DNA from: Minisyncoccota bacterium
Lineage (GTDB): Bacteria; Patescibacteriota; Minisyncoccia; JAHIHE01; JAGLIN01
Assembly (NCBI GenBank): GCA_041661265.1
Contig: JBAZUT010000005.1
Coordinates: forward strand, 27,038-91,037
Reading direction: 5' to 3'
DNA length: 64,000 nucleotides
Made by a program: the position numbers and the translations under genes. Position 1 is the stretch's first letter; the number at the start of each line of letters is the position of its first letter. Below are positions 1,702-58,789 of the stretch, piece after piece. Below the pieces are notes generated by a model. It saw only the letters and a program-made list of their open reading frames with translations. It searched no databases and was not told where the DNA came from.

Positions 1702-3198
1702 ATGAACAGCCATATAATTGAAACGCTGAAAAAGGAAATCGCAAAAACAAAGCTCGATACTCAGCTTGAGAAAGTCGGCCAGGTCATAAAGATCAGCGAC
1801 GGAGTAGCGACGCTCAGCGGGCTCACCGACGCCATGAGCGGAGAACTTCTCGAATTCCCGGGAAAGATCTTCGGAGTTGCATTGAATCTCGAAGAAGATT
1901 CTGTCGGCGCCATGATCCTCGGAGACTATCTCAAGATAAAAGAAGGAGACACAGTGAAAAGCACGGGAAGGATACTCGAGGTGCCGGTCGGGAAAAATAT
2001 GATCGGCAGGGTCGTCAACGCACTCGGCCAGGCCATCGACGGAAAAGGCGAAATAAAATCCGACAAGTTCTATCCGGTTGAAAAAACAGCTCCCGGAGTC
2101 ATCAAGAGAAAATCAGTCAACACTCCGCTTCAAACAGGCATAAAAGCCATCGATTCCATGATCCCGATCGGAAGAGGCCAGAGAGAACTGATCATCGGAG
2201 ACAGACAGACGGGAAAAACCGCCATTGCGATCGACACTATAATCAATCAGAAAGGCAAGGATGTTATCTGTATCTATGTTGCCATCGGACAGAAAGGATC
2301 CAAGATCGCCAAGATCGTAGCAAAACTGGAAGAAAGCGGCGCAATGGATCACACAGTTGTCGTTCTTGCGAGCGCTTCAGATCCGGCATCGATGTCATTC
2401 ATCGCTCCCTATGCGGGATGCGCGATCGGAGAATATTTCATGGACCAGGGAAAAGACGCGATGATCATTTATGACGACCTGAGCAAACACGCATGGGCGT
2501 ACAGGCAAGTGTCGCTGATCCTCCGCAGGCCCCCGGGAAGAGAAGCATATCCGGGAGATATATTCTATCTGCATTCAAGGCTCCTTGAGAGAGCTTCAAA
2601 ATTGGATGAAAAATATGGCGGCGGTTCGCTTACGGCACTTCCGATAATCGAAACACAGGCGGGAGACGTCAGCGCCTACATTCCGACCAACGTCATCTCC
2701 ATCACCGACGGACAGATATTCCTTGAGACCGATCTCTTTTATCAGGGAATAAGGCCCGCCATAAATCCGGGAATATCCGTTTCCAGGGTGGGATCCAGCG
2801 CGCAGACCAAAGCCATGAAGAAAGTTGCCGGAAAGCTCAGGCTGGAACTGGCTCAGTTCAGAGAACTGGCGGCATTCGCTCAATTCTCCAGCGATCTGGA
2901 CAAGGAAACAAAGGACAAGATCGAAAGAGGAAAAAGGCTTACTGAAGTTCTGAAACAGACGCAATACAGTCCCCTTTCCATGGAACAGCAGGTTGCGATC
3001 ATTTTTGCGACGATCAATGGCTATCTCGATGACGTCGAAGTTGAGAAAGTGAAAGAATTCGAAAGATCCCTGCTCGAATATCTGAATGAGAAGAACAGCG
3101 ATATCATCAAAAAGATCGCAGCCGATAAAGATCTCAGCGAAGAAACCGTGGGCAAGCTGAAAAGCGCCATTGAGGAATTCAAGAAGAAATTCATCTGA
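1702..3198 (+). CDS. atpA: F0F1 ATP synthase subunit alpha
   Basis: P-loop GDRQTGKT plus highly conserved alpha-subunit blocks ([26 protein letters not shown]). Confidence 0.95.
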
Positions 3199-8978: not shown

Positions 8979-9027
8979 AAAACAAAAAAGAAACCGGCAG
9001 TGATCAAAACTGCCGGTTTCTTCTTAT
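8979..9027. terminator. bidirectional intrinsic terminator between convergent genes
   Basis: aaaccggcag-tgatcaaaa-ctgccggttt hairpin with an A-run upstream and a T/C-run downstream. Confidence 0.55.
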
Positions 9028-9043: not shown

Positions 9044-10483
9044 CTAATCCAGCTCCTTTGAATACAGATCGGCATATAACATAACCCTGTCCGGATAGAA
9101 GAACAGATTCTTGCGTCTCCAGCTTCCTCCGCCAAGATATTGTCCGGCGGCTTCATATTCCGCATCATAGCTCCCGGTCGTAACTCCCGATACTTTTGAA
9201 AGCTTGGTCGCCATTGCAGCCATTGCGTCCGTAAGGTCCCATGGATTCGGCGGATAATGTCCGGATATTTCGCTCACCTCTTCTTCATGCGCCAGCCATG
9301 TGGTCGGTATGAATTGAGCAGGACCCATGGCGCCTCCGCACCCGTAGTTAGGCTCCTTTGAAACATTAACGGAATCAGGTTCTATGCCGAGTTTGTTTAC
9401 GATCTCGAAATATGCATTCCTTTCGTCCTCCGCCCTTTTAATATAATATTTTTTTCGGGACGCGGTTTTCGCGATCTTCGAAATCCTCAAATAGCACTGA
9501 TACATATCGTCATTCCAGTTCCCCGTACCGACATTGACACCCATATCGGATTCAACCTTGAGTATTCCCAGCAGAAACGCCGGGCGGACACCGATCCTGG
9601 CTCCGATATATTTTGCAGCCGCAAATGCATCGGAAAACTTTATTTTACTTCCCATGATCTGAAGATCATGCAGCTTTGCTTTCAGAGAAGGCAATATATT
9701 TTTGTTCTCTTCCAGGATCTGCTGGAATTTCTTTTCCTGTCCTTTTGTGACCTCGAGAAGTTCCGCTTTCTGTTTTTTCAACTCTTCAAAATTATTATTC
9801 TGTTTCGTCTTTATGCCTATGAGTTCCTGATGCTGCAATTGCTCTTCTTCCAGCTCCCCTTCTTTGATCCCCAGATCGTCTTTTTCTTTCTTCAGGGCGG
9901 TTATTGTGTCGTATATCTTGCTTTCCATGGCCTCTGTCGAATTGAATTCATTGAAAAAATCAGATATGTTTTCTCTGGTAAGAAGCGTTTCAAAAATTGA
10001 ATCCTGGTCATAAACATATAAAAGCTTTATATACTCTTTCAGGATCTCCTTATTTCTGATTATCCTGCTCTCACTGTCCACTATTTTGTTTTTTGTATCT
10101 TCGATCCCAAGCTCTATCTCTTCTATCCTTAGTTTCGTTTCCTTCACCTCCAGCTCATTCTTTTTTATATTGTTCTCGTATATGGCCATATCCGTTTTGA
10201 GCGACCTTGCCTTTTTCTGTTGCGCTTTGATCTCGACGGTATAATTGCTGATCTTTGACTGAACATCCTTGATCTCCTGTCTAACCTTGTCCATAGATTC
10301 GTTTATTTCATCCAAATTCACCGATGCCGCATCCGAACCGCTTTCTTCCGCTTCCGCCTGCAAGACCGATGTTCTTCCGACAAGCAACGTTATAGACAGA
10401 ATAAACACAAGAAAACCGCACAACAAAATAGTTCTGCGGCTTCCTGACAATATCAATACTTTGATTTTTAAACCTATTTTCAT
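9044..10483 (-). CDS. membrane-anchored coiled-coil protein with a C-terminal lytic transglycosylase (MltB/SLT-like) domain
   Basis: C-terminal GCGGAMGPAQFIPTTW resembles the MltB-family catalytic motif; the N-terminal ~300 aa is heptad-rich coiled-coil after a transmembrane helix. The track start at 10642 overlaps rplY by 128 nt and encodes K/R junk; the internal ATG at 10483 (MKIGLKIKVLILSG...) is preferred. Confidence 0.6.
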   Translation of the reverse strand: MKIGLKIKVLILSGSRRTILLCGFLVFILSITLLVGRTSVLQAEAEESGSDAASVNLDEINESMDKVRQEIKDVQSKISNYTVEIKAQQKKARSLKTDMAIYENNIKKNELEVKETKLRIEEIELGIEDTKNKIVDSESRIIRNKEILKEYIKLLYVYDQDSIFETLLTRENISDFFNEFNSTEAMESKIYDTITALKKEKDDLGIKEGELEEEQLQHQELIGIKTKQNNNFEELKKQKAELLEVTKGQEKKFQQILEENKNILPSLKAKLHDLQIMGSKIKFSDAFAAAKYIGARIGVRPAFLLGILKVESDMGVNVGTGNWNDDMYQCYLRISKIAKTASRKKYYIKRAEDERNAYFEIVNKLGIEPDSVNVSKEPNYGCGGAMGPAQFIPTTWLAHEEEVSEISGHYPPNPWDLTDAMAAMATKLSKVSGVTTGSYDAEYEAAGQYLGGGSWRRKNLFFYPDRVMLYADLYSKELD

Positions 10484-55551: not shown

Positions 55552-56814
55552 ATGAAAATAAAAATCGATCATATCGCGAAAATCGAAGGGCACGCCGGAT
55601 TTGTAGGGCACATCGTAAAAGGCAATGTGAAAAAGGCTCAAATCGAGGTGCAGGAAGGTGCAAGGCTTATCGAGAGCCTCCTTATTGGAAGAAACTATGA
55701 GGACGCGCCCGTAATCACATCCCGAATCTGCGGACTTTGCCCCGTCATTCACAATATCACAAGCATAAAGGCTCTTGAAGAATGCTTTGGCATAAAACCG
55801 ACGAAGGAAACCGTGATGCTTCGCGAACTCATGCTCGCGGGCCAGATCATCCAGAGCCATGTCCTGCATATATTCTTCCTGAGCTCCACGGACTATTTCA
55901 AGAACAGGGACGGACTTGATATTGCGGGAGAAAGACCCGAATTCGTCGTAAAAGTTCTGAGGCTCCGGGATTTCGGCAACAATGTCATAAAGTTCATCGG
56001 AGGAAGAGCCATTCATCCCCTGACCCCGAAAGTTGGCGGATGGCACAAGGTCCCGAATAAAAGCATTCTCCAGGAGATCGAAAAAGAAGGAAAAAAAGTT
56101 CTCCCCTACAGCAAGCTTCTCGTGGATTTCGTTATGTCGCTCAAGATCCCCGATTTCAAAAGAAAGACTGAATATCTGGCGCATAAGCCCAATGAAGAAA
56201 ACAAGTATTCTTCATATTACGGAAAAGTGCATTCAAACGAAGGCTGGGTTGCGAATGAGGAAAAATTCAGAGCGGAAATTAAGGAACAGCAGATGGACGG
56301 AACTGTGGCAAAACTCGCAAAGCGCGACGGGAAAAGCTATGCGACCGATGCCCTTGCACGGCTTCATATCAACAAAGAGAACCTGAATCCGAATGCAAAG
56401 AGAGCCCTGGAAAAGTCGAAGCTCAAGTTCCCGAATTACAATCCTTTCTATAACACCCTTGCGCAGACGATCGAAGTTATGCACTATGTCGAAGAATGCA
56501 GGAAGATCGCAGCGGAACTTGAAAAATGCGACCTTGCAAATATAAATACCAATTTTCAGGTGACTGCCGGCCATGGCGCCGCGATACTTGAGGCCCCGCG
56601 AGGCATGCTCTATCACGCCTATGAAGTAGACGGGCAAGGAATGATCACGAAAGCGGATGTGATGACGCCTACAGCGCAATTGCTCGTTAATCTGAATGAC
56701 GACCTCAAGCGATATCTTCCGCACGTGAACAAGTTCAAGAAGGAAAAAAGGGAACATGAGATCCTGAAGCTCGTCCATTCATATGATCCATGCATTTCAT
56801 GCTCGACGCATTGA
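55552..56814 (+). CDS. group 3b [NiFe] hydrogenase alpha (large, catalytic) subunit
   Basis: L1 motif RICGLCPVIH near the N-terminus and L2 motif DPCISCSTH at the extreme C-terminus. Confidence 0.9.
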   Translation: MKIKIDHIAKIEGHAGFVGHIVKGNVKKAQIEVQEGARLIESLLIGRNYEDAPVITSRICGLCPVIHNITSIKALEECFGIKPTKETVMLRELMLAGQIIQSHVLHIFFLSSTDYFKNRDGLDIAGERPEFVVKVLRLRDFGNNVIKFIGGRAIHPLTPKVGGWHKVPNKSILQEIEKEGKKVLPYSKLLVDFVMSLKIPDFKRKTEYLAHKPNEENKYSSYYGKVHSNEGWVANEEKFRAEIKEQQMDGTVAKLAKRDGKSYATDALARLHINKENLNPNAKRALEKSKLKFPNYNPFYNTLAQTIEVMHYVEECRKIAAELEKCDLANINTNFQVTAGHGAAILEAPRGMLYHAYEVDGQGMITKADVMTPTAQLLVNLNDDLKRYLPHVNKFKKEKREHEILKLVHSYDPCISCSTH

Positions 56815-56931
56815 AAATGAAAAAAGCAAATATCCCATGCCTGCGGCAGGCAGGAAAAATAAAAATGACAATGTAAAATTAAAAATTAAATTTCATTTTT
56901 CATTTTGATTTTTTAATTTTAAACTTGAAAC

Positions 56932-57186
56932 ATGCACGATATCCATGCAGCCAACCAGATCCTGAAAACTGCGCTTGAATACGCAAATAAGAACAAGTTC
57001 AAGAGAATAAGCTCAATGACGATCGAGCTTGGAAAGATTGTGGAACATAATGAACTCATAACTCCGGATAACTTAAAGTATAATATCGGACTTATCTCCA
57101 AGAACACCCCTGCCGAAAATTGCGAAATCATAGTGAATCAATCTGACAGCAACGAATTGAAGCTGGTTGAGATCGACGGAGAATAG
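56932..57186 (+). CDS. hypA: HypA-like hydrogenase nickel-insertion factor, truncated form lacking the Zn-binding CxxC pairs
   Basis: MHD N-terminus (MHE Ni-binding motif in canonical HypA) and similar length and architecture to the HypA N-domain; only one Cys in 84 aa. Confidence 0.5.
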   Translation: MHDIHAANQILKTALEYANKNKFKRISSMTIELGKIVEHNELITPDNLKYNIGLISKNTPAENCEIIVNQSDSNELKLVEIDGE

Positions 57187-57274: not shown

Positions 57275-57338
57275 ATATCTCCATATAAAGAAACACGCTA
57301 TGCGTGTTTTATTGTATCGCTTTCATCCTATTAATTTG

Positions 57339-57869
57339 TCACATAAACAGATTCTCCGGATTATTCCTGTCCAGTTCCCATTTTATGGGATTATTTTGAA
57401 TATATCCACGGATCTCAAGCAATGATCTTTCATTGCGAATAACGTGGTCATAGAAAGAACGTTGCCACTGAAAATTTGTATCCGGATTTATTTCGCTAAT
57501 ACAGCGCGATGAAAATGTCTTGAAGCCGCGTATTATTTCAGATAATGAATATTTTTTGAATTGCTTGTCCGTAGTGACAGGTTTCAAACCTGTCACTACC
57601 ATCGCAATCGCGGTATTATCAATAGCAATGATTCCATGCATATGATTCGGCATAATAATCCATTCAACCAAAATACAATTTTTATAATGACTTGGCAAAT
57701 CCAACCAGCATTTTTTAGCGATTTCTCCGCACTTATTCAAAATCATTTTCCCGTCCTCAACTTTGCCAAAATATTCCTTCTTGTTTTTTATACAAATGGT
57801 CACAAAATAATACCCATCTTGTGAATAATCATAATCAGGTAATCTGTTCGATTTTCGGGATTTTAACAT
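57339..57869 (-). CDS. IS200/IS605-family HUH tyrosine transposase (RAYT-like TnpA)
   Basis: HUH motif MPNHMHGII and catalytic-Tyr block RSFYDHVIRNE. The track ORF starts with TTG at 57884; the ATG at 57869 is preferred. Confidence 0.75.
   Translation of the reverse strand: MLKSRKSNRLPDYDYSQDGYYFVTICIKNKKEYFGKVEDGKMILNKCGEIAKKCWLDLPSHYKNCILVEWIIMPNHMHGIIAIDNTAIAMVVTGLKPVTTDKQFKKYSLSEIIRGFKTFSSRCISEINPDTNFQWQRSFYDHVIRNERSLLEIRGYIQNNPIKWELDRNNPENLFM
57571..57599. repeat. 29-nt REP-like palindrome (gtagtgacagg-tttcaaa-cctgtcactac) lying in-frame inside the transposase ORF
   Basis: Perfect 11-bp stem; translated as VVTGLKPVTT within the protein. Confidence 0.7.
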
Positions 57870-57886
57870 GTTATCACGAAACAATA

Positions 57887-57915
57887 GTAGTGACAGGTTT
57901 GAAACCTGTCACTAC
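57887..57915. repeat. second copy of the 29-nt palindrome, inverted, immediately upstream of the transposase start
   Basis: Exact reverse complement of the copy at 57571-57599. Confidence 0.7.
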
Positions 57916-57934
57916 AAAATAAATTAATGTATGT

Positions 57935-58789
57935 TTATCTATTCCTGAAAAGCTCTATCTTTTCTTCCACCGCTTTCTGTACATTGTCCCTTGCAATGGA
58001 CATGAATTTTCTCGGATCGGTCGTCTGTTCGCCGCTGGCAAAAAAATTCTTGAGGGCTTCAATGAACGCGACCCTGATCTGTGTGTCGATGTTCACGTTC
58101 ACTATCCCAAATTCAGATATGGCCCTTTTCACATCTTCGACAGGGACTCCCGAACCGCCATGCAGAACGAATGGCGTGGAAACCTTTTCCCGGATCTTTT
58201 TCAGAAGATCGAAATCAAGCCTTGGATTTTCCTTCCCCTTGTATCCTCCGTGGATATTCCCGATTATGACAGCCAGCGTGTCAACTTTGGTCTTTTTGAC
58301 GAATTCTTCCGCCTCATCCGGTTCGGTTTTTTCCATCTGACTCAGAGCCACACCGACTTCAACGCTGGAATCGAGCTTCGGAATCTTTCCAAGTTCCGCC
58401 TGAATGAATACGCCCTTTTTGTGGCCATATTTCACGATCTCTTTTGTGATCTCGACGTTCTTTTCAAAATCATATGCGGAAGCGTCTATCATGACGGATT
58501 CGAATCCCGCATCGATGCACTTGATCACATTATCAGAATGCTTTCCATGATCAAGATGCAAAACCAGTTTCGCTTTCGATTCAGAAATAACACCCCTAAT
58601 CAAAGCTACAAGTGCATCAAATCCGGCATATTCAAGGGCATTTTCCGTGACACCGATCAGCGCTGGAAAATCTTTTGCGACAGCCGCACGCGCGATCCCC
58701 TGCGTTATCTCAAGATTATTGGTATCGAACGTCCCGACTGCATATCCCCCCTTTTTCGCATCGTTTATGATTTGTTTGATTAGTGACAT
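57935..58789 (-). CDS. fba: class II fructose-bisphosphate aldolase
   Basis: LHLDHG metal-binding block and IHGGYKGKENP...LHGGSG. Confidence 0.9.
   Translation of the reverse strand: MSLIKQIINDAKKGGYAVGTFDTNNLEITQGIARAAVAKDFPALIGVTENALEYAGFDALVALIRGVISESKAKLVLHLDHGKHSDNVIKCIDAGFESVMIDASAYDFEKNVEITKEIVKYGHKKGVFIQAELGKIPKLDSSVEVGVALSQMEKTEPDEAEEFVKKTKVDTLAVIIGNIHGGYKGKENPRLDFDLLKKIREKVSTPFVLHGGSGVPVEDVKRAISEFGIVNVNIDTQIRVAFIEALKNFFASGEQTTDPRKFMSIARDNVQKAVEEKIELFRNR

Follow-up and report, generated by a model that had tools for sequence, protein, structure and literature searches.

The gene under study lies on the minus strand at positions 57339 to 57869 of the window, by which we mean the whole stretch of DNA analyzed (64 kb; GC, 0.418). 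It belongs to the domesticated-transposase type known as RAYT and is a TnpA_REP-type HUH-Y1 gene as judged from its open reading frame, a Pfam Y1_Tnp match, a fold match to the solved structure 4ER8, and identity to a database protein (P0001) that carries the label "transposase [Candidatus Paceibacterota bacterium]." The ATG at 57869, which gives a product of 176 amino acids, is backed as the start by homologues and by P0001. The neighbors are the housekeeping genes fba and tpiA and a convergent hypA-like gene beside a NiFe-hydrogenase-like gene. Directly upstream, fba (57935 to 58789, minus strand) encodes a class II fructose-bisphosphate aldolase (Pfam F_bP_aldolase, E = 2.2e-86). On the other side, the region 55552 to 57186 contains the NiFe-hydrogenase large-subunit-like gene (420 amino acids), followed by the short HypA-like open reading frame (ORF), whose 84 residues match only positions 1 to 67 of the 112 in the profile. 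Between the convergent hypA-like and RAYT genes, 30 nt past the RAYT stop, lies a terminator-like hairpin with an 8-bp stem (57291 to 57309), which is not a REP (repetitive extragenic palindrome).

The RAYT/IS200-type assignment proposed in the initial annotation was borne out. The Pfam Y1_Tnp model (PF01797) matches the protein with 44.1 bits (cut-off, 23; E = 2.7e-11), and the top-scoring NCBIfam model is REP_Tyr_transpos (NF047646), at 66.5 bits (E = 2.2e-18) and thus below its equivalog cut-off of 80. With the AlphaFold (AF2) model of the protein (mean pLDDT, 83.7), the best match among solved structures was 4ER8, TnpA_REP bound to a REP hairpin (Foldseek E = 4e-7; TM, 0.57 to 0.61), followed by the IS608, ISDra2, and IS200 transposases; the top 30 PDB matches are all Y1 transposases, in line with the ferredoxin-like fold of this superfamily, whose single catalytic Tyr sits on a C-terminal helix. 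Residues H76, H78, W135, Q136, Y156, and N160 are invariant in an alignment with 40 homologues (A1). The codons for H76-M77-H78, the HUH motif within PNHMHG, lie at 57636 to 57644 (minus strand) and align with the HMH of 4ER8, while the YIQNNP motif is encoded at 57387 to 57404 (minus strand), its Y156 and N160 corresponding to Y115 and N119 of E. coli TnpA_REP. In a profile search of solved structures, the stretch WQRSFYDH...YIQNNP aligned with E. coli TnpA_REP, albeit marginally (E = 0.0011). Since Y156 is thereby aligned to the catalytic Y115, we presume it to be the catalytic tyrosine. The other candidate, Y140 (the tyrosine of SFYDH), was dropped because the 4ER8 alignment points to Y156. 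Taken together, sequence and model support a RAYT/IS200-superfamily Y1 enzyme of the HUH/Y1 single-strand-DNA endonuclease type.

Two copies of a palindrome, GTAGTGACAGGTTT[C/G]AAACCTGTCACTAC, are present at 57571 to 57599 and 57887 to 57915 and nowhere else in the window. The first is the 29-mer GTAGTGACAGGTTTCAAACCTGTCACTAC, the second its reverse complement, as the initial annotation had reported. The internal copy has a 13-bp perfect stem, a 3-nt loop, and GTAG...CTAC ends, which makes it a "double-foot" REP, and it encodes V91 to T100 of the RAYT in frame (VVTGLKPVTT). It was said to lie between the HUH motif and the catalytic tyrosine, which holds for H76 and H78 on one side and Y156 on the other, but not with the tyrosine of SFYDH in that role. 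The upstream copy is the same save for the central base and lies 19 nt past the fba stop and 17 nt ahead of the RAYT ATG. A third copy was not found in the 64 kb, either with up to three mismatches or with the 19-nt core (0.00 expected from shuffles). The only perfect stems of at least 10 bp in the window are those of the two REPs and of one other hairpin, at 8988 to 9022. The latter, 35 nt with a 14-bp perfect stem and a 7-nt loop (AAGAAACCGGCAGT-GATCAAA-ACTGCCGGTTTCTT), is unrelated to the REP. As single-stranded DNA, each REP copy folds at -13.0 to -13.4 kcal/mol (z, -6.5 to -7.7), and since the GTAG foot stands 5' on both strands, either strand can fold into the same hairpin.

The geometry of the locus is somewhat different from what had been described. 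The gene was said to be bracketed by inverted palindromes. There are indeed two copies, but the span between them covers only the N-terminal part of the RAYT gene, and a 3' flanking REP, such as relatives like L088 have, is absent from the window. Moreover, because the stems are self-complementary, the inversion comes down to the central base (C versus G). Likewise, the second copy is upstream of the start, but "directly" (2 nt) only with respect to the listed TTG and not to the supported ATG. Its position just past a gene end (fba) is typical of REPs. On the minus strand it has a terminator-like score and a T-rich tail, and it contains a -35-like GTGACA; these are consensus matches only.

A search with the core of the palindrome and any central base retrieved 57 metagenome contig stretches, or 56 unique contexts after duplicate removal. 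The contigs have a GC content of 0.37 to 0.45, similar to that of the window. The GTAG foot is found in 52 of the 56 dispersed copies and the CTAC foot in 48, and about 42 of the 55 copies outside RAYT genes occupy short gaps between open frames, often right after gene ends. Given these approximately 55 further, mostly intergenic, contexts, the 29-mer is a true dispersed REP, and the REP/RAYT association suggested by the initial annotation is supported. With two copies in 64 kb, and with the source contig absent from the metagenome matches, this dispersal pertains to related populations and not to the genome from which the window derives.

Several features of the dispersed copies deserve mention in their own right. 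The base 5' of the foot in the 56 copies (L081 to L137) is T in 33, C in 15, A in 8, and never G, and the base 3' of the REP is A in 28, G in 15, T in 11, and C in 2; this bias may be the mark of a cleavage or target preference. The context ...ctattGTAG...CTACgttaccataaacc is common to contigs of different samples (L084, L096, L097, L101, L124, and L130, and also L081 and L119) and apparently represents one orthologous REP site retained in related populations. In contig L129 (Ga0256833_1022624; GC, 0.30), the 29-mer at approximately 3122 to 3150 is read in frame as VVTGLKPVTT within an ORF with the flank ...VGAMREVLARRLNHLEDWGKPDLIILDGGQGH..., which, by eye, we take to be UvrC-like. In L086 (Ga0256833_1019174; GC, 0.30), an open frame of more than 900 amino acids on the minus strand (1 to 2784) also contains an in-frame REP (VVTGFKPVTT), with the look-alike fragments PVTT and TGTRPVAT nearby, which suggests repeated REP-derived segments in a low-complexity protein.

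Several observations connect this REP to the enzyme. Two of the metagenome contigs carry RAYT genes whose products are 64 to 68% identical to that of the window. One of them, L088, has the full set: the same REP precedes the gene by approximately 33 nt, recurs at the corresponding internal site, and follows the gene after 12 nt. The other, L137, a contig of 1,275 nt that ends inside the gene, has the internal copy and two upstream copies. In relatives, the upstream copy lies 13 to 62 nt from the gene. Among 66 homologous loci with an internal hairpin (see below), 27 have a matching copy within 300 nt of the gene, versus at most 2 of 66 in permuted controls, and protein identity computed with the linker masked correlates with stem identity (Mantel r = 0.34; 0 of 999 permutations as high). 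In L139, the upstream and internal copies differ by T/A versus G/C, respectively, and similar compensatory cases occur in L043 and L061. A generic palindrome scan also showed that some loci left blank by strict matching (such as L138 and L139) do have double-foot REPs in their flanks, of another or a compensated type. In L138, which at 74% identity is the nearest homologue represented by DNA, the two REPs (approximately 9940 to 9970 versus 10277 to 10305) differ in both loop and stem type, with GTAGGGAACAAAAATTTTTGTTCCCTAC as the upstream double-foot REP and GTAGGGACAGGTTTTAAACCTGTCCCTAC as the internal one. On the basis of these sequence comparisons, the 29-mer is the presumed cognate REP of the window RAYT.

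The internal palindrome is not peculiar to the window. A scan of species-representative genomes yielded 80 loci out of more than 547 relatives, and these loci together with the window make up the 81 considered here. The 80 span the candidate phyla radiation (CPR), Chloroflexota, Cyanobacteria, Bacteroidota, Planctomycetota, Nitrospirota, and other phyla. In 66 of the 81 listed loci, the strongest hairpin of the whole gene is found at the same protein position (query residues approximately 83 to 109), with a perfect stem in 48 of the 66. One of the two patterns used in the locus scan was the GLKP peptide itself; the GLKP type accounts for only 15 of the 66 positive loci. Stems and loops vary by lineage, with loops such as TNA, CATG, AATT, CGCG, and TATA. 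In the closest relatives (64 to 74% identity), the same or a compensated palindrome is present at the same site. At some of the loci, a second, divergent RAYT paralogue (29 to 45% identity to the query) lies within a few kilobases (L004, 11230 to 11748; L008, 6948 to 7628; L032, 2292 to 2771).

What is conserved at this site appears from the manner in which it varies. The 40 closest homologues (53 to 74% identity) show almost no departure from the peptide V-G-[TN]-G-[LF]-K-P-[VF]-P-T, and where residues do change, they change in pairs that preserve the DNA stem (V2/T9 versus G2/P9; T3/V8 versus N3/F8). Within the GLKP class, 95% of cells are paired, and five pairs show double changes, in 25 cells, a result that none of 500 shuffles matched. 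One and the same DNA, GTAGGGGCACGGCATGCCGTGCCCCTAC, is read as VGARHAVPLQ in L022 and L031 and as CRGTACRAPT in L046 and L058. Forty loci read the foot as GTA|G, 12 read it as xGT|AG, and none reads it as xxG|TAG; only two frames are usable because the third is closed by the TAG stop. The internal copy of the window uses one of the two stop-free frames. In view of the differing stems, the compensatory changes, and the use of two frames, we conclude that the conserved object is the DNA palindrome and that the peptide is a by-product. In the initial annotation, homologues with the same residues but no palindrome had been considered a sign of ancestral coding sequence. The outcome of this check was mixed: similar residues are present in homologues, but because their DNA also contains the palindrome, not instead of it.

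At the protein level, the segment V91 to T100 behaves as a tolerated insert in a disordered surface loop, as judged from the model and the homologues. Residues 91 to 102 are the only internal stretch with a pLDDT below 50 in the AF2 model, within a disordered linker (84 to 108) between the HUH strand (76 to 83) and a helix (109 to 127). Across the homologues in A1, the region between the HUH strand and the next helix contains 0 to 40 extra residues. Short linkers free of a REP (L059 and L028), decayed REP remnants (L006, L008, and L056), and tandem duplications at the internal site (P0007, P0016, P0023, P0025, and L030) fit a tolerated and dynamic insertion site, so that the 10-residue tolerated insert contemplated in the initial annotation stands. 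In the duplicated linkers (A1 columns 113 to 164; L030), REP-encoded units are repeated (VGTGFKPGKWNKINM, and GPCAVPK four times) as the site expands and contracts.

This architecture has been described before. Quentin et al. (2018, BMC Genomics 19:475; PMC6006769) defined subclass 2.4 of TnpA_Y1 (TnpA_REP), to which all 100 RAYT group 4 sequences of Bertels et al. 2017 (PMC5581495) were assigned (PMC6006769). It is characterized by NH[IFV]H, WQ, and YIxNNP motifs, by an insertion between beta3 and alphaC that is highly variable, and by double-foot REPs with 5' GT[AG]G...C[TC]AC 3' (PMC6006769). [quoted passage not shown] The in-gene REP that the initial annotation had deemed unusual is therefore a published hallmark, and the phenomenon was already known. 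The window gene shares WQ, YIxNNP (here YIQNNP), and NHxH, the variable insertion between HUH and the helix, a double-foot REP, a flanking REP, and an in-frame REP between HuH and Tyr. Like subclass 2.4 genes, it lacks a C-terminal extension and is present as a single copy in a housekeeping-gene context (within the window). It differs in its NHMH, a minor deviation from NH[IFV]H (its homologues have NHIH, NHVH, and NHFH), in the lack of a 3' flanking REP in the window, and in its CPR/Paceibacterota host. The reported hosts are Cyanobacteria, Bacteroidetes, and "various phyla" (PMC6006769); relatives of the window protein at 40 to 44% identity come from Nostoc, Microcystis, Microcoleus, and Marivirga, taxa in which subclass 2.4 was reported to be abundant. 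Matched in motifs and architecture to the published description, the window unit is very probably a REP-RAYT "REPtron" of TnpA_REP subclass 2.4, that is, of RAYT group 4.

Other known systems are more distant. The E. coli TnpA_REP/RAYT (YafM, PDB 4ER8; subclass 2.2, RAYT group 2) has the same fold, with aligned HUH, WQ-type Trp, Tyr, and Asn residues, and GTAG-tagged REP hairpins. However, it is only 19% identical to the window protein, its gene lacks an internal REP, and its REPs have a single foot and bulged stems and occur in hundreds of copies and in BIMEs (clustered REP arrays). The IS200/IS605 TnpA transposases (IS608 and ISDra2) share the HUH/Y1 fold and the recognition of subterminal DNA hairpins with a 5' guide tetranucleotide. 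In contrast, the window gene is a single copy (tblastn found no second RAYT in the 64 kb), its hairpins are identical and dispersed alone, and neither tnpB nor distinct left and right element ends were found in the window. An IS200/IS605 TnpA identity was rejected on these grounds and because the NCBIfam transpos_IS200 model scores 23.9 bits against a cut-off of 55. In-frame REPs in other kinds of genes also bear comparison, such as the window 29-mer in the presumably uvrC-like ORF of another organism (L129). Genes, notably those for repair, can harbor REPs in frame (Di Nocera et al. 2013, PMC3733652), but they do so sporadically and at varied sites, whereas the REP of the RAYT gene has a fixed site in most of the subclass.

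How such a unit might operate can be sketched from E. coli TnpA_REP. That enzyme binds single-stranded DNA at the REP hairpin and, guided by the 5' GTAG foot, cleaves the DNA and joins it again (PMC3479197; PMC3733652). By analogy, at 19% identity, the window enzyme would do the same with its own REP, and owing to the double foot both strands would offer the same substrate. Its activity would spread the REPs and homogenize the whole family, the copy inside the RAYT gene included, and that internal copy would be tolerated because the loop is presumably not needed for catalysis. Conceivably, the upstream copy also terminates or stabilizes the fba transcript and damps read-through into the RAYT gene, although the terminator and promoter features are consensus matches only.

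A merely tolerated passenger fits poorly with two observations. First, internal copies are commoner than flanking ones: in the listed loci, stems of at least 10 bp occur inside the gene in 57 of 81, within 150 nt upstream in 26 of 81, and downstream in 19 of 81, against a background of 0.19 per kb, and many loci hold a perfect internal copy without a flanking one. Second, identical REPs of 28 to 29 nt occur in proteins that are only about 50% identical (e.g., L046/L058 and L010/L020). Enzyme-driven homogenization could explain both. The alternative is that the internal palindrome is a selected cis-acting element, either a protected "master copy," carried along with the gene and impossible to delete without a frameshift, or an autoregulatory binding or cleavage site of the enzyme on its own gene. 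The two observations speak for this alternative, and so do the mismatches. Among single mismatches of the in-gene hairpins (L001 to L080), the sense strand has A.C or C.A 11 times and G.T once, which means that wobble-compatible pairs remain on the template strand. The template strand also often holds an intact GTAG foot where the sense strand reads GTAA. On the other hand, the site can be free of a REP, hold decayed remnants, or vary in copy number, as in the loci listed above; homogenization by the enzyme would give equal conservation without function; and the locus set was partly chosen by the GLKP peptide pattern. We therefore regard a selected cis element as possible but doubtful, and its strongest version, in which the in-gene REP is the most conserved component of the subclass 2.4 system, can be advanced only tentatively. 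If true, the in-gene REP would be a frameshift-protected master copy that is cotransferred with the gene and seeds the REP family, or else a site by which the enzyme senses or limits its own gene.

It is unlikely that the hairpins function mainly as RNA structures, the upstream copy as a terminator or mRNA stabilizer for fba and a read-through attenuator and the internal copy as an mRNA roadblock or RNase site that limits RAYT expression. Both copies would fold in RNA too, the upstream one is terminator-like and followed by a T-rich tail, and effects of REPs on mRNA stability and translation are known (PMC3733652). However, we found no G-U pairs at the covarying stem positions of the GLKP class, and the mismatches on the sense strand are of the RNA-disruptive A.C type, 11 to 1; for these two reasons we rank an RNA role low. 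In addition, the double GTAG foot and a palindromy that is perfect on both strands indicate recognition of DNA, and the covariation of REP and protein would be left unexplained.

Less probable still, and largely refuted, is a recent self-targeted insertion of the REP into the gene in the lineage of the window, as entertained in the initial annotation. The internal and upstream copies differ in the central base alone, which hints at copying or conversion in the recent past, and the same 29-mer occurs in frame in unrelated ORFs elsewhere (the presumably uvrC-like one of L129, and L086). Yet the palindrome is found at the same position in 66 of 81 listed loci from many phyla, the segment hardly varies among the 40 closest proteins, and the closest relatives have the same or a compensated palindrome, with L088 and L137 carrying the same REP in the same place. 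Finally, we give next to no credence to an ordinary ancestral coding segment with incidental or peptide-driven palindromy, which the near invariance of the peptide among close homologues would favor but which was discarded in view of the hairpin-compensating residue pairs, the reading of one DNA in two frames as unrelated peptides, and the approximately 55 noncoding contexts of the 29-mer.

In summary, a REP-RAYT unit of the subclass 2.4 type, with a tolerated internal REP that the enzyme may help to homogenize, is the reading that we favor. What is new here is the host, a member of the Paceibacterota, a CPR lineage with a reduced genome; in the literature that we searched, there was no paper linking RAYTs with Patescibacteria and no report of REP-RAYT systems in the CPR. 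Thus, a known oddity, a RAYT gene whose reading frame contains the DNA on which its product presumably acts, is extended to reduced CPR genomes. In thousands of proteins annotated as "transposase," variable segments that are otherwise puzzling are explained as peptides encoded by REPs (VGAGLKPAPT, VGARHAVPLQ, CRGTACRAPT, and others). To the published description, our survey adds the fixed site, the two reading frames, the compensatory evolution, the covariation with the protein, and the excess of internal over flanking copies, and it thereby sharpens the question of whether the internal REP is neutral or functional.
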